Shown here: positions 1,119-56,656 of the stretch, piece by piece | Position numbering within the stretch: the first letter of the stretch is position 1 | How the letters are laid out: each line of letters opens with the position of its first letter | Assembly: GCA_958296135.2 (NCBI GenBank) | Contig: CATQHZ020000001.1 | Location: 32,001 to 96,000 of the forward strand | Origin: an uncultured Poribacteria bacterium | GTDB lineage: Bacteria; Poribacteria; WGA-4E; WGA-3G | Direction: 5' to 3' | DNA: 64,000 bases | Made by a program: the position numbers and the translations under genes | Notes under the pieces: model-generated | Told to the model about the DNA's origin: nothing | The model's input: the letters and a program-made list of their open reading frames with translations, nothing else | Databases searched by the model: none

Positions 1119-1211
1119 AAACATAAGACTTGACAACGTCAAGACACCCTGGTAAATTAACCTAAACACCCCAAAAAACCTCCGCCGAACGCATTGCGAA
1201 CGACAAAAAAC
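1119..1211 (+). repeat. ~95-bp dispersed repeat (TTGACAACGTCAA core), copy A, abutting ATG 1212
   Basis: aagacTTGACAACGTCAAgacaccctggtaa...ccgaacgcattgcgaacgacaaaaaacATG; aligns with copies B-I. Confidence 0.8.
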
Positions 1212-3179
1212 ATGCAAACAAACGTCTCTGCCTTAACCCGCGGTGTCACGTTCCGAGCCGTCGCGCTGGCACTCATACTTATCCCGATTAACTGCTATTG
1301 GATTATGTATACGGAGATGGTCTGGTGGGGTCTCTTCCCTACCACAATGTCGCTCTTTTTCAATGCAGTTTTCTTTCTTTTTTGCCTCACGTTCCTCAAT
1401 CTGCTTCTGGCAAACACCGTAGACGCAGTTTCCAACCGCGCCTCCCGGAACGGACACAAGCAGGAACGGACGCGATGGGCATTGACGCATAGCGAGCTCC
1501 TCGTCATCTACATCATGCTATGCATGGCAAGTGCCGTCGCATCGCACGACCACGCGCAAGTCCTTATCCCGATGATAGGACACGTCTTCTGGTTTGATAC
1601 ACCCGAGAACGAATGGCGCGAACTCCTTTACCGGTACATGCCAGAATGGGCAACCGTCCAAGACAAACAGATTTTGGAGGGATTTTATGAAGGACAAACA
1701 ACGCTTTACCGCGCCGAAGTGCTGCAGGCATGGCTCGGGCCTGCGTTGTGGTGGACTAGTTTTATCGTGGTGCTTTTGCTCGTGATGGTATGCATCAACG
1801 TCGTCCTACGCAAGCAGTGGACAGAACGTGAGAAACTCGCCTATCCTATTATCCAGCTACCCTTGGAAATGACGCGGCACAGCGGTGCCAACTTCTTCCG
1901 CGGCGGTCCCTTTTGGACAGCCTTCATCCTCGTCTCCCTTTTGAATCTTATCAACGGGCTCAGTTATCTGTTCCCGACGATACCTATCCTCGGCGTGCGG
2001 TTTCGGAATATCAGCCACTTTTTCACGGAGAAACCGTGGAATGCTATCGGGTGGACTCCGTTTTCCATCTATCCGTTCGTCATCGGGCTCGGATTTTTCA
2101 TGCCGTTAGAGCTATCGTTTTCTTGCTGGTTTTTTTACCTGTTTCGCAAGATGCAGCGCATTGTTGGCGCGATTCTCGGCGTGCGAGGACTCCCGGGATT
2201 TCCGTATGACCGGCAGCAATCCCTCGGCGCATATTTGGGGCTCGCCATTTTCGCGCTCTGGGCCAGCCGAAAATACCTCGCCGAAGTCTTCAAGCAGGTG
2301 ACAACGGGACGCTCGAACCTTGACGAATCGGTTGAGCCGATGCGCTACCGGACTGCGCTCGCCGGCATAGTGCTCGGATGCATCTATCTCATCGCCTTTT
2401 CTGTGAAAATAGGCATCAGCATTACGCTCGGCATCGCCTTTTTCGCAATATATTTTGCGCTGTCAATAGGCATCACGCGGATGCGGGTTGAATCCGGTGC
2501 ACCCGCGCACGATTTGCATTTCATGGGCCCTGATTACGCGCTCCCGGCAATTTTAGGCTCACGCCGAATGGGCGGCTCGAATCTCACCGCGCTGTCCTTC
2601 CTCTTCTTCTTTAATCGCGCGCACCGCAGTCATCCGATGCCGCATCAATTAGAGGGATTTCAACTCGCCTCCCGCGCGCGGTTTAATCCGAAGCCGTTGG
2701 TGTGGGCGATGCTGCTCGCCGTGTTCGTCGGTTCGATTGCATCGTTCTGGGCATATCTGCACGATGTCTACCGCTTCGGTTCCGCGGGAAGTTTCGCGCG
2801 GCATCCGTTCAATCGCCTGCAACAGCAACTCAATTTCCCTACCGGCACCAACATTCCTGAAGTGACATTTATGGGCATCGGCATGGGGTTCACCTTCCTA
2901 CTGATGTTTTTACGGATGCGGTTTTTCTGGTGGCCCTTCCACGCCGTTGGGTATGCTGTCTCCGGTGCCGCGGACTGGTGCATGAATTGGCTCTGGAGCT
3001 CCCTCGTCATTAGCACGGTAGCGAAATGGCTCATCATCAAGCAGGGCGGCTTGCAGTTGCATCGGAAGGCGGTACCTTTTTTCCTCGGCTTAATTCTGGG
3101 AGAATTCGTCGCGGGCAGTCTATGGAGTTTTTTCGGCATGGCGACAGAAACGCGGATATTTCCGTTTAAGGATTGGTGA
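1212..3179 (+). CDS. DUF6785/DUF6784-like polytopic membrane protein (putative peptide transporter)
   Basis: Many TM segments; motifs QWTEREKLAYPIIQLP, HPMPHQLE, WWPFHAVGY; paralogue of 51603-53615. Confidence 0.75.
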   Translation: MQTNVSALTRGVTFRAVALALILIPINCYWIMYTEMVWWGLFPTTMSLFFNAVFFLFCLTFLNLLLANTVDAVSNRASRNGHKQERTRWALTHSELLVIYIMLCMASAVASHDHAQVLIPMIGHVFWFDTPENEWRELLYRYMPEWATVQDKQILEGFYEGQTTLYRAEVLQAWLGPALWWTSFIVVLLLVMVCINVVLRKQWTEREKLAYPIIQLPLEMTRHSGANFFRGGPFWTAFILVSLLNLINGLSYLFPTIPILGVRFRNISHFFTEKPWNAIGWTPFSIYPFVIGLGFFMPLELSFSCWFFYLFRKMQRIVGAILGVRGLPGFPYDRQQSLGAYLGLAIFALWASRKYLAEVFKQVTTGRSNLDESVEPMRYRTALAGIVLGCIYLIAFSVKIGISITLGIAFFAIYFALSIGITRMRVESGAPAHDLHFMGPDYALPAILGSRRMGGSNLTALSFLFFFNRAHRSHPMPHQLEGFQLASRARFNPKPLVWAMLLAVFVGSIASFWAYLHDVYRFGSAGSFARHPFNRLQQQLNFPTGTNIPEVTFMGIGMGFTFLLMFLRMRFFWWPFHAVGYAVSGAADWCMNWLWSSLVISTVAKWLIIKQGGLQLHRKAVPFFLGLILGEFVAGSLWSFFGMATETRIFPFKDW

Positions 3180-3255
3180 CGCACGACACCTGTAAGGGCC
3201 GAGAAAGATATCCACCTTTATAGAACGAAATCAGCTGGGATACGCGAAAAAATAG

Positions 3256-3284
3256 TTGACATCCGTGCAAAAATGCGGTATAAT
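3256..3284 (+). promoter_or_regulatory. consensus sigma70 promoter upstream of argF-thrC
   Basis: TTGACA-N17-TATAAT. Confidence 0.8.
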
Positions 3285-3345
3285 TAACATTTCTTATTGA
3301 CACTGTATGGACAGATTTCTCTCTCTGTCCGTTTTCTGGAGACAA

Positions 3346-5501: not shown

Positions 5502-5553
5502 CAAAAAACGCGATAGGCGCGCTTTCAAAGCACGCCTACCGGGAGAAGTTCGG

Positions 5554-6291: not shown

Positions 6292-6446
6292 TGGGACTTC
6301 CTCCCTTTGAACATTTCAGGATGGACGCAGCACTTCCGCCGTAGGCGCAATTCAAAACCGCGCCTACCAGCACGTGTCAATTTTTGCGTCGCTCCTGCAG
6401 TCTTTACCTTAATTATACACCATTCTCTAAAAAAAGTTGCAAAAAA

Positions 6447-9772: not shown

Positions 9773-9813
9773 CGCGGGCTCAGTGTGCCCGCGTCATGCG
9801 TTAGGGGTTGGCG

Positions 9814-10164: not shown

Positions 10165-10242
10165 GTTGTCCTCCGTAGTGCGAGTTCTGCCGAACCTGCG
10201 CGGTTTGAGATGCCCCGAACGCTAACGCCGCGGGTTGTTGCG

Positions 10243-16426: not shown

Positions 16427-16556
16427 CGAACGGTTTCCCGCCCCGCTTCTGTGCGGGGGATCGGATGAATCTCTGTGGAGCGGGAGTTCTTCTCGCTCCA
16501 TAACACAATGCGGAACAACTATTCCGCCCAGATTTTAGGGGCTAAAAATAGCATCG

Positions 16557-16650
16557 AAAACGTAGTCATCGACAACGTCAATGACAAGTTACGCAAAGGA
16601 ACGTTATTGCTCCAACCCACCTATCCGAACGCTTTACGCCAAAATAAAAA
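16557..16650 (+). repeat. ~95-bp dispersed repeat, copy B, abutting the holA ATG
   Basis: aaacgtagtcaTCGACAACGTCAAtgac...ccgaacgctttacgccaaaataaaaaATG. Confidence 0.7.
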
Positions 16651-28845: not shown

Positions 28846-28968
28846 AAGACAGATTTTTGTTGTTCGCCAGACGTTTGATAACGTCTCTTGTGCAATAACC
28901 GTTTGCAAATAAAATACACATTTCCATTGCGGTTTCTTTGAAACTGCAATGTTGATAGGAGAATCTTG

Positions 28969-39641: not shown

Positions 39642-39647
39642 ACACTC

Positions 39648-43247: not shown

Positions 43248-43318
43248 CGTCTTTGTCCTCTTTGGCCCGTAGCGCGGGGGCCTGTCCTCCGCGAGCGTGG
43301 TGTGGCGAGTGACGGTAC

Positions 43319-46297
43319 CTACTCAATGCCGAGTTCACGGAGATGCTCATCTGCCTCTCGTTTCCACTGTTCCGGCGGGTTTAATGCCAAGAACCGTTTC
43401 CACTGCTCCCGCGCCTGTTCCCGTTTCTCCCGGTATTCATACATGAGCGCAAGGTTGTAGTTAGCCGTCAAGTTCCCCGGGTCCAGTTGGATAACGCGCT
43501 CAAACTGCTCCGTCGCTGCGCCGAGTAAATCCATGCTGAAGAGCGTATTGCCATAATTGAGCAGCGTCGGCACGTGCGATTCGTCTAAAGCGAGTGCCTT
43601 CTCCAATGTCTCTTTGGCGGCGTTGTAATCCAATGCATGCGCGTAGTAGAGCTCACCGAGGTTTTGATACGTCCCGATGGCTATGTCATCGGTTGCATCT
43701 TGAATCAGTGCCGCTTCCTTCTCATACTGCGCGATTGCACCTTTCCAATCCTGTTCCCATGCCGCAATTTTACCGAGGTGCAAATGCGCGCCCCGGTAGT
43801 TCGGGGAGAGCGACAGCACCTTTTCAAACGCCGCTTTCGCCAACCGGTGCCGGTCTATCTCCAAATAGATGACACCCACCGTGTAGTGTGCCTCCACGTT
43901 TCTCGGCTGCAGTTCTGCCACCTGCTTGAAATCCTCCAGAATCTGGCTGTAGCGATAGAGCGTTGCGCCAATCTGCTTGTAACGCAGTGTCAGCATGCCG
44001 CGATGGAAGTAGGCATCGACATAGCCTCCGTTGAGAGACAGCGTTGTGGTATATTCGGTCACGGCGAGTTCCGCGGGTTCATGATAGTCGTCCCCGAGGG
44101 TTTCTGCGTGTCTATCCAGCAAGCGCGCATACCGATAGTGCCACTCAAAGTTCTCCGGCGCGTAATGATTCGCTAATTTGTAGTGATGGAGAGCGCGCTC
44201 CCAAACATAGGGTTCGCGGGGGACAGGCTCCTGCGCTACGTTACCTATTTCTTGACCGGGAGGAGAGCCCGCCCGTTCCCGATTTTCTCCCCGGTTCTCA
44301 AAAATACCCGCGAGCAGATAGTGAAGTTCCGGATGGTTCGGCTCCAATTCTAATGCTGGCGGATAGACGCGGATGAGGTTTTCTTCGTCGTTGCGTTTGC
44401 GATAGATGGCACCGAGTCGGAAAAACGGTTCAGCGTTAGTCTTGTCGAGAGCAATGGTGTTTTCATACTGCGCAATGGCGTTGTCAATATCGCCTTTCTG
44501 TTCAAATAGGATGCCGGCTTGGTAGTGCGCGGTGACATTATCGGGTGTCACGCGTGTGGTTTCAAGAAAGGCTGCCAATGCTGCATCGGGTTGATTGAGT
44601 GCCAGATACGCCTGTGCAGAGATATAGTGTGCTTCGGCGTTATCGGGTTCCATCGCAATGATTTGCTTTAAGGCCTCCACAACTTCCCCATGCGCGCCAG
44701 CTTCACGGTAAATGTGAACCATCTTAAAAATCACATCGGGCCGCGCTGCGTCCAATGCCAGCGTCCGTTTGTAAAAGTGGAGTGCCTGCTTAGTATCGCC
44801 GAGTGCCTCGTAGCTCTGGCCGAGCAGATAGGTGGCGGCGATGTCCTCGGGGAAAAGCAAGAGGTGCGTATTGAGCGGCTCAATCGCATGGGGATAGTCT
44901 GCATCGTCAAACGCGTGCTGTCCCTGTTCGATGAACATGTCCGCCACTGCCGGATTTAATTCGATGGCACGTTGGAAGTAGGTGCTTGCTGTCTCCGCAT
45001 CCCCTTGTCGGTGGTGGAGTTCGCCGAGTTTGAGGTAAACGTCGTTGAAATGTCCTACCGGCAGTTCCATCTCTAGATACCGAGGTTCCGCCGCTATGAT
45101 TTCAAGCGTTTTCTCATAGTACGCGATGGCCCCTTCAATGTTCCCCGTGTCCGCTTCAAGGATGCCTGCGTAAAAGGAGACGCGCGCATCATCCGGTAGC
45201 ACAGCCCTCGCTTTGTCTAAGATTTCTGTCATTCGCGAGGCGTTCGGCGCGCGTTTTTCGTTTGATGACGTTGTCAAGCCTGGCATCCCTGTCTCGCCTT
45301 CAAAATAGGGCCGCAGCGGCTCAAAAAAAGCGTTCTCCAGACTGGGCATCAGCGCGAGTGCCAGCCGATAGTGATGGACAGCCGTCGCCGTATCGCCTTC
45401 CGCATAGAGCAGGGCGGCGAGGGAAAAATGGATAGGCGCGTTTTCTTTTTCAATTTCCAAGGCGCGTTGATAGAGTTGTATCGCGCCGGATGCATTGCCG
45501 CCATCCCTGAAGATATTGGCGAGTTCCGCAACTGTTTGTGCCGAATAGGGCTGATATTTCGCGCCTTTCGCATATTCTTCCAGGGCCGCGGCAAAGAAAC
45601 CTTCGGTGGCAAGCACCTGTCCGAGCTTGAAATAGGCGGGTGCGAATTTCTTTTTCTGCTGGATAAGTTTCTCGAACGCCTCCCGCGCGCCGTTCGTATC
45701 GCCTTCGGCGAACGCGACTAAGCCGAGTCCATAGCGCGGGTATTCCCACTTCCGGTTTAACTGGTGCGCTGTCTCAAACGCCGTGCGCGCTTCAGCGGTG
45801 TTCCCCGCTTTCAGGTGAATCTCGCCGATGCGGTAGTAGACAGGATAGTAGTTCGGATTGAGTTGGAGGCACGCCTCAAATTGCGCGAGGGCATAGGCGT
45901 TCTCGTTTTGCTGCTGATAGACACCGCCGAGGTTAAAGCGCGCCCAAAACAGCCCCGGGTCTAGCTCCAGGGCGCGGTGAAAAGCGGTGACGGCCGTCGC
46001 CAGTCCCGTGTCGGTGCCGTGCAGCGCGTGCGCGTAGCCGAGGCCGTAAAAGAAAGCCGCGTCTGTTTCGCGACGCGCTTTTTCTTCGAGATACAGCGTC
46101 CGGACTGCTGCCAGATGTCCCCGTTTTTCCCATTTGATGGTAAAGTCGCGATGTTTTTCGGTTGGTTTTTTCTTCTCGCGCAGCACCTTCGCGAAGTCCT
46201 TTTGCATATCGGTGTGCCATTTCTCTGCGGCGAGCCCTGGCATCACGAGCGTGAGAAGGAGTAGCGATGCCAAAAGCCAGCTCTGTGTGATTTTCAC
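43319..46297 (-). CDS. large exported tetratricopeptide-repeat protein
   Basis: Many TPR units; GTG start after GGAGG SD; signal peptide. Confidence 0.85.
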   Translation of the reverse strand: MKITQSWLLASLLLLTLVMPGLAAEKWHTDMQKDFAKVLREKKKPTEKHRDFTIKWEKRGHLAAVRTLYLEEKARRETDAAFFYGLGYAHALHGTDTGLATAVTAFHRALELDPGLFWARFNLGGVYQQQNENAYALAQFEACLQLNPNYYPVYYRIGEIHLKAGNTAEARTAFETAHQLNRKWEYPRYGLGLVAFAEGDTNGAREAFEKLIQQKKKFAPAYFKLGQVLATEGFFAAALEEYAKGAKYQPYSAQTVAELANIFRDGGNASGAIQLYQRALEIEKENAPIHFSLAALLYAEGDTATAVHHYRLALALMPSLENAFFEPLRPYFEGETGMPGLTTSSNEKRAPNASRMTEILDKARAVLPDDARVSFYAGILEADTGNIEGAIAYYEKTLEIIAAEPRYLEMELPVGHFNDVYLKLGELHHRQGDAETASTYFQRAIELNPAVADMFIEQGQHAFDDADYPHAIEPLNTHLLLFPEDIAATYLLGQSYEALGDTKQALHFYKRTLALDAARPDVIFKMVHIYREAGAHGEVVEALKQIIAMEPDNAEAHYISAQAYLALNQPDAALAAFLETTRVTPDNVTAHYQAGILFEQKGDIDNAIAQYENTIALDKTNAEPFFRLGAIYRKRNDEENLIRVYPPALELEPNHPELHYLLAGIFENRGENRERAGSPPGQEIGNVAQEPVPREPYVWERALHHYKLANHYAPENFEWHYRYARLLDRHAETLGDDYHEPAELAVTEYTTTLSLNGGYVDAYFHRGMLTLRYKQIGATLYRYSQILEDFKQVAELQPRNVEAHYTVGVIYLEIDRHRLAKAAFEKVLSLSPNYRGAHLHLGKIAAWEQDWKGAIAQYEKEAALIQDATDDIAIGTYQNLGELYYAHALDYNAAKETLEKALALDESHVPTLLNYGNTLFSMDLLGAATEQFERVIQLDPGNLTANYNLALMYEYREKREQAREQWKRFLALNPPEQWKREADEHLRELGIE
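45222..45288 (-). repeat. shortened dispersed repeat, copy C, in frame within the TPR gene
   Basis: ggcTTGACAACGTCAtc...ccgaacgcctcgcgaatgacagaaa, translated as GLTTSSNEKRAPNASRMTE. Confidence 0.6.
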
Positions 46298-46514
46298 GGT
46301 TTTTTCCTCCGAGTCAGTTTTTGGTTGTTTGCGATAGGATAAGGTGGCGTGCATTGTCCGCAAAAGCACACCGCGTTCCGAAATGAATCAATATAGTTCC
46401 CGAACAGAGCAAGTTCAAATGAAGGTTCAAAATAATTGGGTAATTTTTCGCAGGGGTGCTGGCTTAGCATGGGGACTGAGCGACGGTTGCAGAAATAACC
46501 CAAATTAGCATCAG

Positions 46515-46608
46515 AAACGTAGGCATTGACAACGTCGATGACGGTTCTACGTCAACACACGTGATTGCACCAATCACCCTAACCGAACGTATTGCGACGA
46601 ATAAAAAG
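46515..46608 (+). repeat. dispersed repeat, copy D (intergenic)
   Basis: aaacgtaggcaTTGACAACGTCGAtgac...ccgaacgtattgcgacgaataaaaa. Confidence 0.72.
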
Positions 46609-46610
46609 CC

Positions 46611-48899
46611 TCATTGAACGAAAAGAAAAGCGCGCGAGGTGATGAGTGCCCAAAGCAGGTCTTCGCTTCCCTCACGCCGCGTTGGACTGTCCGCAAGGTA
46701 GGCTGTCGCCGTGGCGAGTTCCGCCGCTGTCGGAAAGCGGGACAAGGTGCGGAGATACAGTTCCGTGATGAGTTCCCGATTCTCGCGGTGTGTTTTCAAC
46801 AGGCGAGTGAGGGCTCCGTCCCGATGACGCAACTTTTTCTGCACATAAGGTGCGTTGATGAGATGGAGGGCCTGCGTCAGCGTCGGTTCCAGTTTCGAGG
46901 ATAAGTCACCCAGGAACTCCCGCTCGGAACGGCCAAACAGCGACAAGAAGCGTGAACTGACAGGCAGAGGCAGTTGCACAGTGCGCGTGCCCATCGGATA
47001 CCGTCCATATTTTTCCTGTGTGCCAGTTACGTCGTTGAGCACATCAAGCAGGGTGTGCGCGTTCATCGGGCGTGGGAAGAACCGCGAGAAGAACCTGTCA
47101 TCCAATTCATTCGTCTCGTTCGGCACGGCGGAGAGTTGATACATTCGCGAATTGAGGATTTGCCGGATGACATGCTTCGGACTGAACCCGCTTTCCACAA
47201 AATCAGCGGCGAGTGCTTCGAGGAGCCCCTCCACACTTGGCGGCGTTGTGGCGCGCATGTCGTCTACGGGTTCAACGATGCCCCTGCCGAAGTAGTAGCT
47301 CCAGATGCGATTGACAGTGGCTCTAGCGAAGTAAGGGTTCGTACCCGAGGTCAGCCACTCGGCGAGGCGTTGTAGCACATCGCCTTGATAGTTTGCAGGC
47401 AACGTTGCACCAGCGAGGAACGTCGGCTGCGCGACTTCACCGCGGTTGCCCTGCACGGACTGATTGATGACGCGTCCCGTCGGATTATAGTAGACAACCT
47501 GTTCGTTGTAGAGTTCACCCGCGCGGGTGCCGACTTTTCCAGTGAAGGCGGCGAAGTTCCAATAATCGTCGGTTGTCCATCTATCAAACGGGTGTTTGTG
47601 ACATCGCGCGCAGCTAAGCCGGATACCGAGGAACACTTGTGCCGTCGTCTCGGCTCTGCCAGCGGGTTGCCGCTCGATGCGGTAGTAGTTAGTCGCTCCG
47701 TGTTGATAAGTGCTGCCCCGCGCCGTGATGAGTTCCCGAACGACTGCATCGTAAGGTTTATTCTGCGCGACGGTGTCGCGCACCCACTCGTGAAAGAGCG
47801 TCGCGCCGCGTTCGCCGAACGCGCCGTTGCCCAAGTCGCGGGGATGGATGCGTAGCATATCGGCGAGTGCCAAGGTGCGGACATCCACCCATGCGGACGT
47901 ATCAAGGAGTTTGTCGATGCACCGGGCGCGCTTGTCCGGGTGTGTATCGGCAAGAAACGCGCGGACTTCTTCCGGTGTCGGTAATCTACCGACGGTATCC
48001 TGATAGAGCCGGCGCAAAAACTCGGTATCGGTGGCGAGAACCGAGGGCTGAACGTTCAGTTTCTTCAGTTTCGTGAAGACCAGCTCGTCGATATAATTGA
48101 CAGGCGTTGGAAAGTCTGCATCGGATACGATTGCCTCGCGGGGCAGCGTGATGAACGCCGCGGTTACCACGCCGAGGTAGCGCGCGAGGATGGCGGTGCC
48201 GCCCCAGCGGAGCCGGGCGACTTCCCCAGTTGCGTTGACTTCTGCGATGGCCGGGTCCTTCGATTCATAGACAACTTGCGCGGTGACATCTTCGACGGAG
48301 CCGTCTGTCCAGTGCGCGAGCACTTTCAGGGATGCAGTTTCTGTCGGCGATGTCAGCACCACCTCGCTCGGGTGGATTTCCAGTTTCGCGAGGCGCGGTG
48401 CGTCGGCAGGAAACGGCGCGCCGGCTCGTATCCAGCGCAGCATCGTTAACGCCTCATCAGAACCGGGCTCAAACCGCACGCCGCCTTCGTGCGGCACCTG
48501 TCCGGTCGGCTTGAGGAGGAAGAGGCTCCGTGCCGGTTCGAGCAGGTTGACACGTCTGCCGCGGTTGTGATGGACAATCGGTTCGTAATCGGATTCAGGG
48601 TTAAGCGTGAGCAGGGAGAGGTTGAACCCGCCTTGCCCACCGAATTTGCCGTGACACATGCCGGCGGAGCACCCCTGTTTATCCAAAATCGGGGCGATGT
48701 CTCTGAGGAACTGTGGCGTTTCACCGGTGATGTTGGCGTGCGCGGATGCCAGCGTCACAGTGAACAGCAAGAGAACGGAAGCCACAAACTTAGCCCTCGG
48801 AACGTAGCCATTGACACCGTCGATAACGGCCCTGGGAAGACACCTTTGAAATGACCAGGGTTGCTGTGCGAACGCGTTGCGAAATACAGAGAATTTCAT
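46611..48899 (-). CDS. DUF1549/DUF1553 planctomycete-type protein with an Ig-like domain
   Basis: GCSAGMCHG, FLRR, CARCHKHPFDRW, NPYFARA.VNR.W, EDLLWAL. Confidence 0.88.
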   Translation of the reverse strand: MKFSVFRNAFAQQPWSFQRCLPRAVIDGVNGYVPRAKFVASVLLLFTVTLASAHANITGETPQFLRDIAPILDKQGCSAGMCHGKFGGQGGFNLSLLTLNPESDYEPIVHHNRGRRVNLLEPARSLFLLKPTGQVPHEGGVRFEPGSDEALTMLRWIRAGAPFPADAPRLAKLEIHPSEVVLTSPTETASLKVLAHWTDGSVEDVTAQVVYESKDPAIAEVNATGEVARLRWGGTAILARYLGVVTAAFITLPREAIVSDADFPTPVNYIDELVFTKLKKLNVQPSVLATDTEFLRRLYQDTVGRLPTPEEVRAFLADTHPDKRARCIDKLLDTSAWVDVRTLALADMLRIHPRDLGNGAFGERGATLFHEWVRDTVAQNKPYDAVVRELITARGSTYQHGATNYYRIERQPAGRAETTAQVFLGIRLSCARCHKHPFDRWTTDDYWNFAAFTGKVGTRAGELYNEQVVYYNPTGRVINQSVQGNRGEVAQPTFLAGATLPANYQGDVLQRLAEWLTSGTNPYFARATVNRIWSYYFGRGIVEPVDDMRATTPPSVEGLLEALAADFVESGFSPKHVIRQILNSRMYQLSAVPNETNELDDRFFSRFFPRPMNAHTLLDVLNDVTGTQEKYGRYPMGTRTVQLPLPVSSRFLSLFGRSEREFLGDLSSKLEPTLTQALHLINAPYVQKKLRHRDGALTRLLKTHRENRELITELYLRTLSRFPTAAELATATAYLADSPTRREGSEDLLWALITSRAFLFVQ
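48801..48896 (+). repeat. dispersed repeat, copy E, read antisense as the DUF1549 N-terminus
   Basis: aacgtagccaTTGACACCGTCGAtaacggccctgggaag...gcgaacgcgttgcgaaatacagagaa. Confidence 0.65.
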
Positions 48900-51442
48900 G
48901 AGAATATCTCCTTAAAAACTTCGGTGATGTGTTCCACGAAGAGGAACGTCATTCCCGATTGAATCTCTTCCGGAATCTCGACAAACTGTTTTTGGTTCTC
49001 ACGTGGGACGATAATCTTCTTGATGCCGGCCTGTTTGGCGGCGAGGATTTTCTCCTTGAGCCCACCGATGGGCAAGACTCTGCCGCGGAGCGTAAGTTCC
49101 CCTGTCATCGCGATTTCTGGGCTGATGCAATGGCCTGTGGCGACAGAGGCAAGGGCGGTGGCAATTGTAATGCCGGCAGAGGGGCCATCCTTGGGAATCG
49201 CACCCGCGGGGACATGGATGTGGATGTCGGCATCCAACACGCCCGAGTCAAACTGGAGTGTATCCGCCTGCGATTTGACGTAACTGAGCGCGGTTTGTGC
49301 GGATTCCTGCATAACATCGCCGATTTGTCCGGTGATGCGGAGCGTGCCGCTGCCATCCGCGCGCCTCGCATGCATCGTGACTTCCACAAATAGGATTTCG
49401 CCGCCGGCTGGGGTGACAGAGAGCCCGGTGGCGACACCGATGTCCGCCTGACGCCCGGCAACCTCGGCAGAGAACTTCGCAGGGCCGAGGTAATCCGGAA
49501 GGCTCTCGGCTGGAATCGCGGCCTCCGCCGCTTCGCCTTCGGCGACGCGGCGTGCCACTTTTCTGCAAAGGGTGCCGAGTTCGCGCTCCAAGTTGCGCAC
49601 GCCGGCCTCGCGGGTATACGCGCTGATGACGGTATCAATCGCCGCATCGTCTACCTGCAGTTGGGCCGCTGACAAACCGTTCGCGGTAAGCTGGCGCGGC
49701 AGAAGATACTGCTTAGCAATCTGCAGTTTCTCGTTGGCGGTATAGCCGGCGAGCTCTAGCGTCTCCATCCGGTCGCGCAGCGCAACGGGAATCGTGTCAA
49801 GTTGATTCGCCGTAGTGATGAACATCACGTTGGAGAGATCGAACGGCACATCAAGGTAGTTGTCGGTGAAGGCGTGGTTCTGCTCCGGGTCCAGCACTTC
49901 AAGCAGGGCGGCACCCGGGTCGCCGCGGAAATCAGAGCCGAGTTTGTCAATCTCATCAAGCATGAAAACCGGATTGTTGGATTCGGCGGTGCGGATGCCT
50001 TTCAGAATGCGCCCCGGCATTGAACCGATATAGGTGCGACGGTGTCCGCGGATTTCTGCTTCATCGTGCATACCACCTAGGGACACGCGGACGAACTTCC
50101 GGTCCATGGCGCGGGCGATGGAGCGGCCGAGTGAGGTTTTGCCTACCCCCGGCGGACCGACGAAACAGAAAATGGGGCTTTTCAGTTCGGGCGCGAGGCC
50201 CCGTTCAGTGCCACCGTTACTAGAGCCGGAAGACTTGACAACGTCCATACCGCCCGGTAAGTCAGCCGTCTCTCCCTCGGTGGTGTCCGACGAACGCTTT
50301 ACACGAGTCCGAAGCATTTGCACGGCGAGGTGCTCGACAATCCGCTCTTTGACCTTCTCTAAGCCGTAGTGGTCTTCATCAAGAACGGTTTGCGCAGCGC
50401 GTAGCTCCAGCGCATCTTCGGTGCTCACCTGCCACGGCAGATTGAGGAGCCAATCGAGGTAATTCCGCGAGACGGTAGATTCAGGGGAGAAGGACTGCAT
50501 CTTGGTGAGGCGGTTGAGTTCCTTTTCCGCTGTTTGCTTCGCCTTTTCGGGCATCTCGGTGTTTTGGAGTTGCTCCCGGAGTTCCTCCATTTCCAGCCCG
50601 AGGTCTTCTGCCTCGCCGAGTTCAGTCTGGATAGCTTTGAGTTGTTCGCGGAGGTAGTATTCGCGTTGCCCTTTGTTAATAACGGCTTGCGCGCGGTTTT
50701 GGATGTTACTCTCCAATTCGTGCAAATCGAGCTCGCGGGCGAGGATGACAGCCAGCGCGTTCAACCGCTTCGTCACAGACACTGCCTCTAAAATCCGCTG
50801 CTTATCAGCGGGTTTTAAGTCAAGCACAGCGGCGACGTAATCGGCAAAGCGGCCGGGCTGCTCAATGTTTTTGGTGAGGCTGCCGTATTCGTCGGGGTAG
50901 CGGGTGGACATGGAGACAATCCGCTGGAACATTTCGTCGTTGCTGCGGAGGAGTGCCTCGACTTCCATGTTGGTTTTGCCCAGGTCTTCTTCTCTGTCGC
51001 GTGCTTCGCTGTTGACGACAGCGACGCGCGCGGTGATAAAGGGTTCCGTGGAGAGAATTTCTTCAATCGCCACCCGCTCGCGTCCGTGCGCGAGGAAAAG
51101 GACATCCTCGTCCTCTTTCTTATAGCGGAGGATATGGATGAGACTGCCGATGGGGCTCAGGTCTGGTGCTGTGATATTTTTGATATCCTCAGACGGGATG
51201 TCCGGATTCGGGCGGAAGATGCAAAGCCCGCGCTCGCTCTTCATGGAGGCCTCAAGCGCAGCCTTCGCCATGTCGCCGGAGAGCGCGACGTGGTGCGGCG
51301 GAAACGGCGGCACTGGCGGCATATACGGAAAAACCACCAGGTCATCGAGCGGCAGGATGGGGAAGTCCCTGTTCGGTTTCTCTTTGGGTTCGCTGTTTTC
51401 GCGATGTTCGTTCTGTGATATTTCTCTCTCTAGTGTTTCCAT
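48896..51442 (-). CDS. lon: ATP-dependent Lon protease
   Basis: DHYGL, GPPGVGKTS, LDEIDK, PKDGPSAG, IGGLKEK. Confidence 0.95.
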   Translation of the reverse strand: METLEREISQNEHRENSEPKEKPNRDFPILPLDDLVVFPYMPPVPPFPPHHVALSGDMAKAALEASMKSERGLCIFRPNPDIPSEDIKNITAPDLSPIGSLIHILRYKKEDEDVLFLAHGRERVAIEEILSTEPFITARVAVVNSEARDREEDLGKTNMEVEALLRSNDEMFQRIVSMSTRYPDEYGSLTKNIEQPGRFADYVAAVLDLKPADKQRILEAVSVTKRLNALAVILARELDLHELESNIQNRAQAVINKGQREYYLREQLKAIQTELGEAEDLGLEMEELREQLQNTEMPEKAKQTAEKELNRLTKMQSFSPESTVSRNYLDWLLNLPWQVSTEDALELRAAQTVLDEDHYGLEKVKERIVEHLAVQMLRTRVKRSSDTTEGETADLPGGMDVVKSSGSSNGGTERGLAPELKSPIFCFVGPPGVGKTSLGRSIARAMDRKFVRVSLGGMHDEAEIRGHRRTYIGSMPGRILKGIRTAESNNPVFMLDEIDKLGSDFRGDPGAALLEVLDPEQNHAFTDNYLDVPFDLSNVMFITTANQLDTIPVALRDRMETLELAGYTANEKLQIAKQYLLPRQLTANGLSAAQLQVDDAAIDTVISAYTREAGVRNLERELGTLCRKVARRVAEGEAAEAAIPAESLPDYLGPAKFSAEVAGRQADIGVATGLSVTPAGGEILFVEVTMHARRADGSGTLRITGQIGDVMQESAQTALSYVKSQADTLQFDSGVLDADIHIHVPAGAIPKDGPSAGITIATALASVATGHCISPEIAMTGELTLRGRVLPIGGLKEKILAAKQAGIKKIIVPRENQKQFVEIPEEIQSGMTFLFVEHITEVFKEIFS
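50228..50318 (+). repeat. dispersed repeat, copy F, antisense and in frame within lon
   Basis: aagacTTGACAACGTCcataccgcccggtaagtcagcc...cgaacgctttacacga; coincides with a ~35-aa extra segment before Walker A. Confidence 0.7.
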
Positions 51443-51537
51443 TTTTTCTCCTTTTGCATGGCTTTCGGCAAACGTGCCGGGAAGCGTAGACGTTTTCCTA
51501 CCAGGTCCCATCGATGTTGTTGATGTTTACGTTTTCT
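51443..51537 (-). repeat. dispersed repeat, copy G, abutting the lon ATG
   Basis: aaacgtaaacaTCAACAACATCGAtgggacctggtagg...ccgaaagccatgcaaaaggagaaaaaATG. Confidence 0.6.
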
Positions 51538-51602
51538 GTCCTTGCCCGAACTACAGAAAGGGAGGACTGAATCACTCTGGGCTTTATCGGCAGAGGTGTT
51601 TT

Positions 51603-53615
51603 TTACGGCCAAAACTGATAGAGCGTCGTATTGGCCACAATGCTGCCGATGCTCCAGAGACTGCCGCACAGATAGTCACCGAGGGCGAGCCCGAGGAACA
51701 GGGGCACTGTCCGTCGATACGCCTTGAGTCCGCCTTGGTGCAGCACCAGTGCCTTCGCTATCCACGCGACGAAAAGGCAGCTCCAGAGGTTGAACATTCC
51801 CCAACTGTTCGCCATCGCATAGCCGAGCGGATGCAGGGGCCACCACAAAAATCGGGTGCGTAGCACCATCATCCCGACAGCAAAGGCACCGCCGCCGCCT
51901 ATGAAAGCGAGCGCGGGCACATCCGTGCCTTGCGGATAATTGAGCCAGTTTTCGAGCTGCCGATACACGCCTCTGCCGAATCCCAATGCCCACGGGCCAT
52001 AATAACCCGTCTCGGCACCGTGCCGATAATAACTATCAAGCAGCAGCCAAAAGACGCTGACTGCGCCTACGGCTGTTGCGATGAGGATAGCGGCGGCGAT
52101 GTGCCGGGGATTGATGTCCCGCCGCTCGGCTATTTTGAACGCCTCCAACTGTTGCGGCATCGGATGCGCGCGGTATGCCCGGTTGAAAAACATGTAAAGC
52201 GAGAAAACTGCCTTTGTTCCCGGGGTCAGCCGTTGTGTGCCGAAGGCTGTCACTAACAGCCCGTGCGCATCGATGCGGTGCAAGTCATGGACGAGGAACC
52301 CGAGTTCGGCGCGTAACCGGGCAATCATCGTCGCGAGCAGAAAGTAAATCCCGAAGAAAAGGGGAATCACCCAGAGCGACATGCCGGCTTGATACGAGAA
52401 TACCGTCAAAAAGAGCATGCCCGCGACGCTGCCGAGAGCGGCGAGGCGATAGGGCATCGGTTCGCGCTGCATGTCCGCGCCACCCTCTCGGATGCCAGCA
52501 AGAATACGTTTGAGATGCGCGCGCCCTACCCACGCGGCACTGCCCAAGAGGGCGAGATACGCGCCGAAGGCTTGTGCATCGGCGTACGGAAAGCCGGGCA
52601 GGTTTCGCACGCCGAGAATGCTTCCTCCCATGAGTTGAAACTTATAGAGCCAATAGAATACCCAGCATGAAAACAGCAAATCAAGCGGAATGAGATAGCT
52701 GATGCCAATGGCGAACGGATAAAACGAGAGCCGCACGCCGCCCATCGCATCCCAGGGTCTGCCCGTAAAATAGTGATGTATGTTCTGCCGTTTGACGGGC
52801 AGGTAAGGCACCGCCGGGTAAATGGAGTTGAGCAGATTCACGATGCTAATTCCCGCGGCGATGCTGAAGCCTACCCACATTAATTTGTTTTGAAAAAAGC
52901 CTGTCTGTGTATCTGTCATCGCGAGGGGCAGTTGGATAATCGGATACGTCAGCCGCTCGCGCTCTGTCCATTGGAGCCGGACGAAAGTGTTGATGCACAG
53001 CATGACACCCATCAACACGAGGATAAAGAGCGTCCACCACGCGGCGGGCCCCGCCCACGCGCGAAGATGTGCCTTTTCGTAAAGGGTGGAATTCCCTTCG
53101 TAATAGCCGTGTAGGACGCGGGCATCCTGCACGGTGAGCCAGGGCGGCAGCTCTTTCCAAAAGAGCTGCGCCCATTCGTTCTCGGCGGTGGCAAACCGAA
53201 ACGGATGCCCCAGAATCGTGACGAGAATCTCCATCATATCGTGCGAGCAGAGCGAGGAGACGATGCACAAGATGACGTAGAGCGTGAGCAATTCGGCACC
53301 CGAGAGGTATTTCGTCTGGGCCGCACCGGAAATGCGCTGAACCCTGGAGAGGTGCCGTGAGAAAACCGGCACCCCGGCCATCCATACAAAAAACCGCTTT
53401 GAGAGTTTGCCTATCATCGCGCTCAGCACCATCAGCCAAAAGATGATAAAAATGACGTTTGACAGCGGATGGATGAGGGTCGGGTGTGTATAGCGGACTA
53501 CCTCCAGTTGAATAATCCAGAAAACGTTAAGCGGTATCAGGATGAGAGCGACAACAAGCACCTTGGGCGTGAGACCGCGCTGAAAAGTGTCAGGGCCGAA
53601 TCCATCCACGTTCAC
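51603..53615 (-). CDS. DUF6785/DUF6784-like polytopic membrane protein
   Basis: Paralogue of 1212-3179; QWTERERLTYPIIQLP, HPMPQQLE, WWPLHPLGY; start codon uncertain. Confidence 0.75.
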   Translation of the reverse strand: MNVDGFGPDTFQRGLTPKVLVVALILIPLNVFWIIQLEVVRYTHPTLIHPLSNVIFIIFWLMVLSAMIGKLSKRFFVWMAGVPVFSRHLSRVQRISGAAQTKYLSGAELLTLYVILCIVSSLCSHDMMEILVTILGHPFRFATAENEWAQLFWKELPPWLTVQDARVLHGYYEGNSTLYEKAHLRAWAGPAAWWTLFILVLMGVMLCINTFVRLQWTERERLTYPIIQLPLAMTDTQTGFFQNKLMWVGFSIAAGISIVNLLNSIYPAVPYLPVKRQNIHHYFTGRPWDAMGGVRLSFYPFAIGISYLIPLDLLFSCWVFYWLYKFQLMGGSILGVRNLPGFPYADAQAFGAYLALLGSAAWVGRAHLKRILAGIREGGADMQREPMPYRLAALGSVAGMLFLTVFSYQAGMSLWVIPLFFGIYFLLATMIARLRAELGFLVHDLHRIDAHGLLVTAFGTQRLTPGTKAVFSLYMFFNRAYRAHPMPQQLEAFKIAERRDINPRHIAAAILIATAVGAVSVFWLLLDSYYRHGAETGYYGPWALGFGRGVYRQLENWLNYPQGTDVPALAFIGGGGAFAVGMMVLRTRFLWWPLHPLGYAMANSWGMFNLWSCLFVAWIAKALVLHQGGLKAYRRTVPLFLGLALGDYLCGSLWSIGSIVANTTLYQFWP

Positions 53616-54684
53616 CTTCAAGGGATACCTCCGTGTTGAACTGCGCGCACCGCTGCTGATAGGCACGCAACGTCTCGATGGCTACCTCGCCGTGGAGCGG
53701 TTGCGGTTGATAGGTGGCGTGCGGTGTCTCTGTCACAATCGGAATTAACTCAATGGATGCCAGCACGCCGTCCGTCCACGTCGCCTTGGGGATGACAAGG
53801 TGCGTGTGCTGTTTGTCGTAAACGTCGTAGATGAAATCAGCGAGGCTATAGACAATAGGTTTTCCCTGATAGAGTTCTATCCCACCGAGGGTATGCAGCT
53901 GTTGGCAGAGCACCATATCGGCACCTGCGTCAATGAGCGCGTGGGCGAAGAGTTGTTGCCGGCCGAGGGCAGATTCGCGTTGCGTCGCATCGGGGGAGGC
54001 GGTACCCCAGTGCAGCCAGACGATGATGCGTTCGGCGTTTTGGCGTGCCTGCGCAACAGCGTTTACCATGTCGCTGTAAACGGCATACGCGACCGGGTCT
54101 GCCGTATACCGCGCAAAGTCAGTCTGCCGGTAATAGGCGAACAACGCCACCTGTTTTTCGGTGCCTTTGATAGAAACCCACGCCGGCCGCCGCGCTGCAG
54201 CTGCTGTCAGCCCGGCACCTATCGGTTTGACGTTGAACCCCTTGAGTTCGGCGAGGGTGTCTTGGAGTGCTTCCAAGCCGAAGTCCATGAGGTGCGGCGT
54301 GGCAAGGGAGACAGCATCAAACCCTGCATTCGCGAGGGCGCGGCCAAGCCCGGGTGCAGCGCGAAAAGGATGCTTGATACCAGGGCGCGGTTCACCTCTC
54401 TCCGAGATGCTGGTGTTGAGCGACGCGGTGGCGATGTCAGCGGATTGAATGAGGGGCGTAGTACCTTCAAAGAAGACGCGCGCACCTTCGGTTTCAATCA
54501 ACGGTGTCAACCGCGCCCCGACGGTGATGTCACCGACAGCGAGAACGGTTATCTCCTCGGCGATGGCGGCGGGGCATAAGCATACAAACGTAAGGCTTGA
54601 CAACGTCAAGACAGCCTGGTAAGTCAACCTTCTCTGCACAGCAGCAGCGGAACGACGCAGTGCGAAAGACAGAAAATGGCGCAT
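53590..54684 (-). CDS. CapA/PGA_cap family metallophosphatase-fold protein
   Basis: AVGDI, HLMDFG, LHWG, LIDAGAD, YSL; some metal ligands substituted. Confidence 0.8.
   Translation of the reverse strand: MRHFLSFALRRSAAAVQRRLTYQAVLTLSSLTFVCLCPAAIAEEITVLAVGDITVGARLTPLIETEGARVFFEGTTPLIQSADIATASLNTSISERGEPRPGIKHPFRAAPGLGRALANAGFDAVSLATPHLMDFGLEALQDTLAELKGFNVKPIGAGLTAAAARRPAWVSIKGTEKQVALFAYYRQTDFARYTADPVAYAVYSDMVNAVAQARQNAERIIVWLHWGTASPDATQRESALGRQQLFAHALIDAGADMVLCQQLHTLGGIELYQGKPIVYSLADFIYDVYDKQHTHLVIPKATWTDGVLASIELIPIVTETPHATYQPQPLHGEVAIETLRAYQQRCAQFNTEVSLEGERGWIRP
54586..54677 (+). repeat. dispersed repeat, copy H, read antisense as the CapA N-terminus
   Basis: aaacgtaaggcTTGACAACGTCAAgacagcctggtaagtcaacc...gcagtgcgaaagacagaaaatg. 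Confidence 0.8.
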
Positions 54685-54696
54685 GGGGTGCCTCCG

Positions 54697-55311
54697 TTAC
54701 GCTTCGGGCTCTTCTGGGAGTGCGAGGACTTCGTCAAGATCGATGTCACTCAGATGTTCTTCTTTGAGCTGCGTGCCGAGAATAATAAGCGCATCGGCGA
54801 GCGTAAGCCGGTCTACTTTGCCGATGTCAAGTGTCTCAGTTTCGGCAGCCAGGTCTGCGCGGAGTGCCTCGTGGTTGCGATGCGTCTGCTCGCGCATTCG
54901 CTGCGTCTCAGTGCTGAGCCGGTCGATTTGCGTTTGGAACTCGCGGGCGAACTCGTTGATGAGGGTGGACAACTTCTGCAAGTCGTCTTCGCCCTGATGC
55001 GTAATGCCGTTGAGCCGCGCATCGATGCGCGCATCAATCAGTGCCTCAATCCCCTGCGGGAGTTTCCGAATTTCCGCTTTGAGTGCTTCGACTTCGGCGA
55101 GGACCTGTTTTTCGAGCGCGGCCAGTTTTTCGTCGGCGCGCTTTTCGCTCTCTTCTACCTCGCGGCTGAGCGCGCGCAGCCGTTTGTTAACACTGCGGAT
55201 ATAACTACCGATGATGCTTTCGCGCAGGTAAGATTCGATTTCCTGCTGCCGAGATGCGGGTTCCTGCTGCGTCTCAGTCGCCTGCGATTGCGGAGTGCTG
55301 GGTGTTTGCAT
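54697..55311 (-). CDS. coiled-coil hypothetical protein
   Basis: Heptad-rich; KVDR..LA..L C-terminus; GAGG SD. Confidence 0.7.
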   Translation of the reverse strand: MQTPSTPQSQATETQQEPASRQQEIESYLRESIIGSYIRSVNKRLRALSREVEESEKRADEKLAALEKQVLAEVEALKAEIRKLPQGIEALIDARIDARLNGITHQGEDDLQKLSTLINEFAREFQTQIDRLSTETQRMREQTHRNHEALRADLAAETETLDIGKVDRLTLADALIILGTQLKEEHLSDIDLDEVLALPEEPEA

Positions 55312-55323
55312 GGTTCAATTCCT

Positions 55324-56391
55324 CTACGGATAATTATAGAGATTTTCGGGGGGTTCCGTTTCGGTATCGAGAATTTCTGTCCCGGTGTCGCGGTGTCCCC
55401 CCGCGTCTGTTTCAATGCGATTCGCTGCAAATTCGCGCAGGATACAGCTGACAATCTCCTCCGTATACGCCTGCGCGTCGATGTTCTGTTGATTCGCCTC
55501 CCATGCCATTCGGGCGGCGGCTTCAAAATACTCCGCGTGCTTGTAGGCATCAAGCAAGTCTGCACCACGTGAGAAGGTGCCATGTCCTACCCAATACAGG
55601 ATGTGGCGCGGCGAATTGGGCGCGTTCTCGAACAACCGCAGGCTCTCGTAAGAGAGTTCGGGGATGCCGGGTGCACGCTCTTGCACAAATCCGATGCCGC
55701 CGGACGCGTCGTAGATAATGGGCGTTTCCGGTTCATAGCCGCGGAGAAAGGCGTAAAACCGGTCGGGATGCCCATGCGCGGTGCGCGAGATAAGGTTCAA
55801 GAACTTCGGTTGCAAGTGGACGAGCGCGGTGAAGCCGGGGGTGTCCACCAGCCGCTCAAAAATGAGGAGGTAGTGGAACATCTCACTCGTCGGCTTCGGT
55901 GCGGCTGCGCTGGTTTGCGTTAAGTCTGCCGCTGTCGGTGTGCCAAGACGCATGCGGTAGTGGGTGCCGTCTGGTTCCACTTCAATTACCGTTAAATTGA
56001 GCGCGGGATGTTCCGCTGCTATCATGTCGAGTCGCGCGCCGGATTTGGTGAGGAGCACGTGTTTCCCCGCGAGTCCGGGGACGACAATCTGTGGGGGTAG
56101 CGGGTAGCGCGGTGCCGCGTCATACGGGATGAGGCATGCCGCGTCGGCCGGTACCGCTAACATCGCGCCCATGTTGCCGGCGGATGCCCAGAGGTAGTGA
56201 TGTGCGTGTGCGTGCGCGCCTACCCAGCCCATCTGTCCAATGAGCGTGCCTGCCTCGCTGTCCGGCGATATCGGCCGAAGAGCGGGATGATAGCCGCGCT
56301 CGCGCCACCGCGCCTCACGATAACTCTGAGGTGAAGGTGCCGTCAACGCGTGCGTCAAATAAGGATTTGCTAACGGAAACTGCACTTGCAA
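55324..56391 (-). CDS. class II aldolase/adducin family protein (rhamnulose-1-phosphate aldolase-like)
   Basis: W...GN, LTKSG, SEMF.Y, VH, W..HG, E.AA. Confidence 0.6.
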   Translation of the reverse strand: MQVQFPLANPYLTHALTAPSPQSYREARWRERGYHPALRPISPDSEAGTLIGQMGWVGAHAHAHHYLWASAGNMGAMLAVPADAACLIPYDAAPRYPLPPQIVVPGLAGKHVLLTKSGARLDMIAAEHPALNLTVIEVEPDGTHYRMRLGTPTAADLTQTSAAAPKPTSEMFHYLLIFERLVDTPGFTALVHLQPKFLNLISRTAHGHPDRFYAFLRGYEPETPIIYDASGGIGFVQERAPGIPELSYESLRLFENAPNSPRHILYWVGHGTFSRGADLLDAYKHAEYFEAAARMAWEANQQNIDAQAYTEEIVSCILREFAANRIETDAGGHRDTGTEILDTETEPPENLYNYP

Positions 56392-56565
56392 TAGATGTCC
56401 TTACGAGAGTTGTTAACTTTAATGCTATTATACCCTATCTGTTTGGGGTTTGTCAAGTTTTTCTTTGCAATATTCATCTGAATAGGGTAAAATCTGCTAT
56501 AATTCAAATGAGTTGTCACAACGTAGGGCGGGGTTTGTTCCTCGCAATGCTAAATGAAGTAACAG

Positions 56566-56656
56566 ACATGCAAGACTTGACAACGTCAAGACGGCCTGAG
56601 AAGACAACCATCTTATCCCTAGAGGAGTTGATCCGCGCATGGCGAACGACAAAAAC
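56566..56656 (+). repeat. dispersed repeat, copy I, abutting the fumC ATG
   Basis: caagacTTGACAACGTCAAgacggcctgag...gcgcatggcgaacgacaaaaacATG. Confidence 0.8.

Follow-up and report, generated by a model that had tools for sequence, protein, structure and literature searches.

Why should a unit of about 95 nucleotides (nt) recur immediately before the start codons of genes of diverse function? The question was raised by a stretch of 64,000 nt from an uncultured Poribacteria bacterium (GenBank assembly GCA_958296135.2, contig CATQHZ020000001.1, positions 32,001 to 96,000 of the forward strand), here called the window and numbered from its first letter, in which an earlier reading of the sequence alone (hereafter the sequence-only reading) had pointed out at least nine divergent copies of a dispersed element with a palindromic core. 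Poribacteria are uncultured sponge symbionts without genetics, and no paper on repeats in Poribacteria was found in our literature search. Our analysis suggested that the element is, on balance, probably a short interspersed repeat restricted to Poribacteria, with a head like that of a repetitive extragenic palindrome (REP) joined to a conserved tail, and that its sense copies serve as leader RNA. The A-rich 3′ end of the element was found flush with the boundary of an open reading frame (ORF), namely with the start codon where the copy was sense to the gene (mostly subfamily A) and with the stop codon where it was antisense (subfamily B).

Copies of the element in the window

A covariance model was built from the alignment of the nine window copies, and all nine were recovered by it in the window with 50.7-91.1 bits (E 1.5e-9 to 5e-19), scores that are circular for the copies from which the model was made. 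Independent support came from three sides. The core TTGACNNNGTCAA with at most one mismatch was seen 11 times in the window against 1.86 expected, a count reached by 0 of 100 shuffles; two 3′ blocks of the element were each enriched alone (10 against 2.9 and 10 against 4.4 expected, about 2-3 fold); and in blastn the alignments of window copies with those of other genomes covered 84-95 nt, with 77-81% identity. The similarity thus extends well past the 13-bp core, and the nine copies listed by the sequence-only reading are real; the refuting condition set by that reading, no significant alignment beyond the core, did not hold. Its description of a dispersed repeat was upheld: the family is non-coding and is not a plain operator site.

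Five copies preceded a gene in the sense orientation and ended at its ATG. The highest-scoring one, of subfamily A (1116..1221, model match 1116-1213, plus strand, 91.1 bits), carried the hairpin CTTGAC-AAC-GTCAAG at 1129-1143 and ended at ATG 1222 of a DUF6785/DUF6784 gene. A subfamily B copy with GTAG and TCATCGAC-AAC-GTCAATGA (16555..16650, model match 16555-16654, plus strand, 70.9 bits) ended at ATG 16651 of holA, and another subfamily B copy with a degenerate stem (51443..51537, model match 51440-51537, minus strand, 72.5 bits), whose tail is now AAGGAG-like, ended at ATG 51442 of lon. The two other copies belonged to subfamily A and lay on the plus strand: 54583..54675 (model match 54583-54678, 82.6 bits) ended at ATG 54676 of a 298-aa ORF without Pfam match, and 56563..56656 (model match 56563-56660, 82.3 bits) at ATG 56657 of fumC, of which an earlier in-frame ATG at 56639 sits within the element. 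The distance from the start of the core to the ATG was 82 nt for the DUF6785 gene, 82 for holA, 81 for lon on the minus strand and 80 for fumC, exactly as reported before, and 79 for the 298-aa ORF, which is added here as the fifth sense gene.

The remaining four copies lay against or within genes. Two plus-strand copies of subfamily B were antisense with their 3′ ends flush with a stop codon at offset -1, that is, 46512..46612 (79.4 bits), antisense to both of its neighbours, with the DUF1549/DUF1553 stop at 46611-46613, and 48797..48897 (80.3 bits) with the Lon stop at 48896-48898. A subfamily A copy at 50221..50319 (plus strand, 74.1 bits) was antisense and, by translation, in frame in lon, while an internally deleted subfamily A copy at 45219..45300 (model match 45219-45291, minus strand, 50.7 bits) was sense and in frame in the TPR gene, which runs on the minus strand from GTG 46297 to 43322. 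For the genes at the copies, Pfam confirmed DUF6785/DUF6784, DNA polymerase III delta, TPR, PSCyt2/PSD1 (DUF1549/DUF1553), Lon, PGA_cap and fumarase. Besides the strong copies, a weak one without a hairpin, with the tail ..GGCGAACAACAAAAA, was found at 28849..28937 (minus strand, 29.8 bits, E about 1e-4), where it separates two genes of the plus strand, and a still weaker match at 648-745 (minus strand, 22.5 bits) was probably due to chance. The sequence-only reading had overlooked the fifth sense copy, the division into two subfamilies, the REP-like GTAG tag and the rule concerning stop codons.

Seven of the nine strong copies were on the plus strand whatever the orientation of the gene, and GC skew was positive over 8-56 kb; a replication-strand bias of the copies is possible, which with nine copies is not significant. 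The DUF6785/DUF6784 membrane proteins are encoded by two paralogues (1222-3179 and 51603-53666), and the element stands before the start of the first only.

Occurrence outside the window

The 17-mer CTTGACAACGTCAAGAC of the core was scanned against 185,579 species genomes and was found at 86 loci, where about 70 were expected by chance according to our own arithmetic. Multiple matches were confined to two of these genomes: Candidatus Poribacteria AGPOR5 had 12, in 11 loci, and the 5.66-Mb chromosome OZ251518.1 had 9, spread over 8 loci between 1.13 and 4.95 Mb. The covariance model had 31 matches in the 86 loci, and 30 of them fell within the 19 Poribacteria loci; 11 model-found copies in these loci were not selected by the 17-mer pattern. 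The source-named homologues of Lon, DUF1549 and TPR proteins were likewise all from 'Candidatus Poribacteria'. One locus of OZ251518.1 (L073) was orthologous to the window at 44344-48550 with 80-86% nucleotide identity, which makes the host of the window a related Poribacterium; it was the sole orthologous locus.

The 17-mer was also present once each in about ten Solidesulfovibrio/Desulfovibrio genomes (L007, L009, L024, L029, L030, L044, L061, L076, L077, L083). These sites received no score from the covariance model, and presumably represent one conserved site unrelated to the element family.

Structure of the element

Forty copies from the window and the 19 Poribacteria loci (140,499 nt) were aligned. 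Tandemly arrayed units were 88 nt long, and the copies as they occur ranged from 73 to 101 nt; the unit consisted of three parts: a hairpin head, a variable middle and a tail. The head began with the tag G[TC]A(A)G, followed by a stem of 8-9 bp closed by an invariant AAC loop. In subfamily A it read G[CT]AAG, (G)TCTTGAC-AAC-GTCAAGA(C) and then GGCCTG, with GCAAG or GTAAG as the tag, the last G of which pairs; in subfamily B, GTAG was followed by TCATCGAC-AAC-GTCGATGA. The GTAG tag was kept in five of nine subfamily B rows, and the others had GTAA, CGAG (twice) and CTAG.

The two arms of the stem changed together. Paired variants were CTTGAC/GTCAAG, ATCGTC/GACGAT, ATCGCC/GGCGAT, AAAGAC/GTCTTT, GACATCGAC/GTCGATGTC and GCATTGAC/GTCAATGC. 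Among 21 distinct rows, 81.5% of the stem cells were paired compared with 63.8% after shuffling, a level reached by 0 of 500 shuffles; double-sided changes were seen in seven of the nine stem pairs, and slid registers were at most 47% paired.

The middle stretch was the most variable part of the element. The tail of about 60 nt was conserved and A/C-rich; window copies ended in ..CGAACGCnTTGCGAAnnACAAAAA and those of the two other genomes in ..GAACAACCGCTAGGAACAACAAAAA, so that it differed between genomes, always with the A-run at its end. In the tandem array before recN (L045), 88-nt units were joined as ..AAAAACATGCAAGTC.. at the junction. The scan against Rfam gave no match at gathering thresholds over the whole window and none at E up to 1 over 45000-57000, so that within these scans the element corresponds to no known Rfam motif. 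Searches by blastn with one copy each, of subfamily A against plasmids and of subfamily B against phages, gave no match.

Placement at the boundaries of reading frames

A copy was called start-flush when its end lay within 3 nt of an ATG opening at least 140 codons. This was so for 19 of the 40 copies, compared with 452 of 20000 positions drawn at random from this DNA (2.3%; P 4e-21). Eight more copies were near misses: one had a TTG start at the same offset, two had the start after a duplicated tail, one was the first unit of a tandem array, one had the ATG 14 nt early and one 17 nt late, and two preceded short ORFs. Five copies were stop-flush, with the stop of the neighbouring gene 1-2 nt from the 3′ end of the model, for which the chance rate was 185 of 40000 random positions (0.5%); all five belonged to subfamily B and were antisense. 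Among the 27 copies of subfamily A, 16 were start-flush and none was stop-flush, whereas the 10 copies of subfamily B gave two and five, respectively (Fisher 6e-4).

Both placements were combined around single genes. The lon ORF (51442-48896) was bracketed by two inverted subfamily B copies (51440-51537 and 48797-48897), flush with its start and its stop, and an 89-codon ORF in L037 (1988-2450) was bracketed in the same manner by one subfamily A and one subfamily B copy. The genes downstream of the copies were of diverse function, including lon, holA, fumC, truD, thiF, tsaE, recN and ABC permeases. The sequence-only reading had regarded the start codon as a part of the mobile cassette. Against this stand sites without a head, which keep the tail and the ATG, and antisense copies, which abut stop codons instead; the ATG seems not to be part of the unit.

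Copies translated inside proteins

The sequence-only reading had placed two copies in frame within Lon (50221, antisense) and the TPR protein (45219, sense), which was borne out by translation and by alignment with L073. Judged from the intact, conserved ORFs, both copies are apparently translated. The antisense copy in Lon accounts for about 28 residues, which follow ..LAVQML.. and stand just before the Walker A strand ..PIFCFVGPPGVGKT. The insert was missing from 14 of 17 aligned homologues, chosen among 119 other matches listed, and the three closest homologues (81-83% identity) had shorter inserts sharing residues derived from the element tail; among the 119 other matches listed, only these three exceeded 815 aa. 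Because these three carry shorter, related inserts, the insertion in Lon is older than this small clade and has since been trimmed. In the TPR gene, DNA alignment showed about 74 nt against 29 nt in L073, so that on balance 15 codons were gained, and the 15 extra residues were missing from all 19 aligned orthologues (of 105 other matches), so that, as far as the alignments go, the TPR insert is a lineage-specific gain. The absence of the inserts from these orthologues agrees with the earlier proposal that the repeat is a source of new peptide sequence.

The same reading had assigned the N-termini of CapA and DUF1549 to antisense copies. The overlap was confirmed in terms of the longest ORFs, about 34 first codons being involved in each case. 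The copy at 48797 overlaps codons 1-34 of the longest DUF1549 ORF (ATG 48899, preceded by AAGGAG), and the N-terminus encoded by the element was shared by one of 17 aligned orthologues (82% identity), while those of the others were unrelated and mostly shorter. The copy at 54583 overlaps, on the other strand, the first ~34 codons of the CapA (PGA_cap) ORF starting at 54684, an ATG preceded by GGAGG; this copy is also sense to the 298-aa ORF, which the earlier assignment had left out. The copies in Lon and DUF1549 are read antisense in frames that differ across the tail, that of CapA is read in another antisense frame, and that of the TPR protein is read sense. The analogy with Rickettsia palindromic elements (RPEs) drawn before therefore stands for the insertion of a peptide in frame (Lon, TPR) and fails for the peptide itself, since the strands and frames differ and no conserved peptide is encoded by the element.

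Turnover between genomes

Comparison of orthologous loci showed that copies come and go. The window's DUF1549-TPR spacer carries a B copy that is antisense and abuts the DUF1549 stop, and its counterpart in L073 carries an A copy in the sense orientation, together with an extra tail that ends at the TPR start. AGPOR5 and OZ251518.1 are 88-92% identical in the region of L001 and L023, where the element precedes an FAA-hydrolase gene in L001 only and the adjacent ABC ATPase gene in L023 only; the two copies are 92% identical, the variable middle included. Such exchanges of A for B, and of filled for head-less sites, show, at the level of sequence comparison, that copies have been gained, lost or swapped between genomes 80-92% identical.

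Two further repeat families were observed. One, GTAGGCGCGC-TTTCAAA-GCGCGCCTAC, is built like a classical GTAG REP, with a tag and a perfect palindrome, and counted nine copies by a repeat finder, some of them weak (sites at 5510-5543, 6338-6371, 7765-7798, 22947-22980, 41101-41134, 41688-41721 and 59682-59715). The other, CCCGTAGGGCGAGGGCCTGTCCCTCGCC, has GTAG and an 8-bp stem and was seen in the window at 7091-7125, 15711-15753, 30143-30184 and 43262-43291; its arrays in L023 at about 700-900 and 2040-2300 fill leaders where L001 has the element, or nothing.

Function and origin of the element

The reading that we favor, a repeat with a REP-like head and a conserved tail whose sense copies act as leader RNA, could be put as follows. 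The unit would be moved or copied by an enzyme or a recombination process that recognizes the hairpin and is encoded elsewhere. Sense copies would be transcribed as the last ~95 nt of leader or intercistronic RNA and would provide the downstream gene with a 5′ hairpin and, after it, an A/C-rich stretch free of structure on which the ribosome could land, a Shine-Dalgarno sequence being faint or missing. Some copies might also fire as a promoter through the series TTGACA-N14-TGn-TAAnnn, and an antisense copy after a gene would supply a hairpin and a U-rich run resembling a terminator. The 10-30 nt before the ATG were unpaired in five of eight folded sense copies. Most copies showed an A/C-rich tract without an AGGAG-type site, while other window genes use AGGAG-type sites, and a scanner found the antisense strand terminator-like at 1143-1129, 16585-16565 and 54610-54596. 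Two copies lay between neighboring same-strand permease genes that probably belong to one operon.

The leader reading was ranked before that of a portable sigma-70 promoter, which is possible, though distinctly less probable, and which supposes that the copy brings its own -35 TTGACA, a 17-nt spacer, TG and a -10 TAAnnn, with transcription beginning about 50 nt ahead of the ATG. The 24 heads of subfamily A had TTGACA in 23 cases, TG at -15/-14 in 22 and A at position 2 of the -10 box in 21. The TTGACA-N17-TAAATT read earlier in the first copy is present at 1130-1158 with TG upstream, and this copy is the sole one in the window to pass a promoter scan; in L005 the 224-nt spacer between divergent genes consists entirely of two copies placed head to head, of which one reads TTGACA-N17-TAAAAT with TG; and at 54583 nothing but the element and CapA coding sequence stands upstream of the 298-aa gene. 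However, T at position 6 of the -10 box occurred in only 5 of the 24 copies, the search pattern itself had fixed 19 of the 23 TTGACA (6 of 7 unselected heads had it), and TTGACA is also an arm of the covarying stem and is lost in the ATCGCC and AAAGAC variants. Promoter-like sites, moreover, lay ~70-115 nt upstream of three copies: near-consensus at 992-1019 (11/12) before 1116, weak (9/12) before 56563, and, as judged by eye, a pair resembling -35 and -10 boxes ahead of the copy in L001. The scarcity of T6, the double role of TTGACA, these upstream sites and the copies between permease genes together put the leader reading first, and the earlier claim of a portable promoter is left weak, with its -35 hexamer, TG and A2 common and its -10 incomplete. 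The host itself appears to use canonical sigma-70 sites, since full-consensus promoters are found in the window, such as TTGACA-18-TATAAT at 56456-56427 (minus) before a class II aldolase gene. A TTGACA..TATAAT pair was also noted within an inverted repeat at 31436-31471.

The palindrome would also suit an operator of a regulon, TTGAC-N3-GTCAA being bound by a dimeric factor and the shared flanks reflecting the common descent of leaders. It is perfect, its center GAC-AAC-GTC is nearly invariant, and its half-sites change symmetrically, as paralogous dimers would need. We nevertheless consider this explanation very improbable, as the downstream genes share no pathway, copies occur within genes, after stop codons and in tandem, the similarity covers about 90 nt, and at least five stem variants would need five regulators. 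Little more credit was given to a structured cis-regulatory RNA, riboswitch-like or a small RNA, folding over its whole length. The constant position in leaders would be in keeping with it, as would an additional small stem, CTGC(A)..(T)GCAG or CTGCC..GGCAG, which inspection by eye showed in about half the copies of subfamily A; against it, RNAalifold found only the 6-bp core helix, folds had z from -2.2 to +0.5, the middle was the most variable part, Rfam gave no match, and copies occurred in both orientations relative to genes. The element might instead not be mobile at all and have spread only by local duplication and gene conversion between neighboring leaders, which we regard as unlikely. 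Seven of the nine window copies do lie within 11.5 kb and neighbors share the subfamily, four and five copies occur within the single 4-kb loci L037 and L014, respectively, tandem arrays exist, the L001 and L023 copies before adjacent genes are 92% identical with the variable middle included, and no target-site duplication was found. Yet the window had copies at 1 kb, 16 kb and 45-57 kb, those of a 5.66-Mb chromosome were scattered between 1.13 and 4.95 Mb, and copies arrived in frame within unrelated genes. We hold with similar doubt the bolder proposal of an 'ORF-boundary cassette', in which a hairpin-recognizing enzyme would place the mobile unit with its A-rich 3′ end toward the ORF, flush with the start or stop, so that many unrelated genes would gain a standard leader on one side and a hairpin with a U-tract on the other.

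Several points weigh against the leader reading as well. Covariation of the palindrome suits a dimeric DNA-binding protein equally well, and the stem contained 2 wobble pairs in the sense and 8 in the antisense direction beside 14 plain mismatches, too few for a clear strand signal. Whole-element folds, with the z values given above, were no more stable than shuffles. As regards mobility, no transposase was seen among 44 ORFs of the window or 68 ORFs in 18 of the 19 Poribacteria loci (L073 left out), including no REP-associated tyrosine transposase (RAYT, of the Y1/HUH type). No target-site duplication was indicated: the two ends of a copy agreed at 4.45 of 10 positions against 4.21 for ends of different copies, and 818 of 5000 permutations did as well. 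No terminal inverted repeat beyond a palindromic CATG was seen by eye on the consensus, whose ends are CATGCAAGTC.. and ..AACAACAAAAACATG. There may be no virgin sites: both head-less sites of L001 and L023 retain the last ~18 nt, TAGGAACAA.AAAAA.ATG, so that either the movable part ends before the tail or the head was deleted, and because solo tails are rare elsewhere, both explanations stand. Furthermore, 19 of the 40 copies had been selected by a subfamily A pattern, which biases the proportions of the subfamilies and not their context. Finally, the copy number may be in the tens and not the hundreds, as the exact 17-mer occurs only 9 times in the 5.66-Mb chromosome, a figure in conflict with the density of one copy per ~7 kb in the window and the loci.

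Comparison with known repeats

By its build, the element is closest to the GTAG REPs and to BIME-like composites; in coding DNA it is closest to RPEs, and by position to Correia elements. GTAG REPs, as described in the sections compared of Di Nocera et al. (2013, PMC3733652), carry a terminal GTAG tag or degenerate forms of it on a stem of 6-13 bp with a loop of 2-3 nt, fall into subfamilies by complementary stem changes, are known in the PVC (Planctomycetes-Verrucomicrobia-Chlamydiae) group, measure 20-40 bp, mostly without conserved flanks, and are found chiefly downstream of ORFs, where the genes converge or run in one direction. Relative to this description, the element has a GTAG-type tag, with GTAG itself in five of nine subfamily B rows, and shares the stem with its short loop (8-9 bp, AAC), the subfamilies arising by complementary changes, and the presence of some copies in genes, at N-termini or against stop codons. 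It differs in that the unit of 88-100 nt has its head fused to a conserved tail of ~60 nt, in that most copies are immediately upstream of starts and single instead of head-to-head dimers, and in the subfamily A tag G[CT]AAG.

According to the parts consulted of two sources (PMC10969869, PMC3733652), RPEs each carry an ORF for a conserved peptide and enter coding sequence in frame. The element resembles them, within that account, as a short repeat adding an in-frame peptide to conserved proteins (Lon, TPR). It is unlike them in encoding no single peptide, in being read on both strands and in several frames, and in being mostly extragenic, with 2 of 10 window copies inside genes. The Correia elements of Neisseria are presented in the excerpts used (PMC2649163, PMC10969869) as units of ~100-150 nt, mostly just upstream of genes, with sigma-70-like promoters; they are co-transcribed into leaders, affect the fate of mRNA, are bounded by inverted repeats, and bind integration host factor (IHF) and RNase III. 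As judged from these excerpts, the element is similarly dispersed, of ~100 nt and placed before genes, and it departs from Correia elements and from MITEs, the miniature inverted-repeat transposable elements, in its ends, which show no terminal inverted repeat by eye and no target-site duplication, and in a 3′ end held in fixed register with the start codon. In bacterial interspersed mosaic elements (BIMEs), REPs alternate in opposite orientations, while the element has one hairpin and a directional tail. BIMEs are characterized, in the portion of the source compared (PMC2817692), as composites in which further conserved motifs are attached to a REP hairpin and which lie between the cistrons of operons.

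The element thus fails the defining features of a REP (size, tail and position), of a MITE or Correia element (ends) and of an RPE (peptide), and it is best seen as a small dispersed repeat of the familiar REP- or MITE-like kind with an unusual rule of placement. A register flush with starts or stops was not described for REPs, MITEs or RPEs in those parts of the literature that were compared. The term 'start codon' is absent from a 2024 review of MITEs (PMC10969869).

Two kinds of known site were considered and rejected on the shape of the core. The centers of Crp/Fnr boxes are 4 nt long and that of the element is 3 nt, and the core motif of integron attC sites does not fit.

Other features of the window

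The window contains further repeated sequence. Long tandem repeats, in frame and with periods of 18 nt and 33/36 nt, lie at 26378-26809 and 27732-28115; the 950-aa protein that contains them has cohesin, FlgD-Ig and Por_Secre_tail domains. Local duplications, segmental or tandem, were found at 9811-10628, 24019-24773, 25491-25742 and 23547-23684, and comprised a spacing of 429 nt with 92-96% identity, spacings of 365-389 nt with 96-98% identity, 126 nt repeated twice and 45 nt repeated three times. A GCC/GTA-rich repeat with a period of 12-15 nt occupies 124-343, in a 332-aa ORF (3-998, minus) without Pfam match. There are also two neighboring histidyl-tRNA-synthetase-like genes, at 18984-20738 and 21475-22965 (minus); the second is without an anticodon-binding domain and may be HisZ-like.

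Meaning for gene expression in Poribacteria

The copies shift the annotation of start sites, as seen at fumC (56639 or 56657) and lon (51511 or 51442), and the inserts of Lon and of the TPR protein are dated examples of how repeats make protein linker sequence. If the flush register reflects targeting and not selection, it would represent a new insertion specificity. The element may offer candidate parts for heterologous expression, and a recurrent leader module of this kind would give a direct handle on gene expression in Poribacteria.

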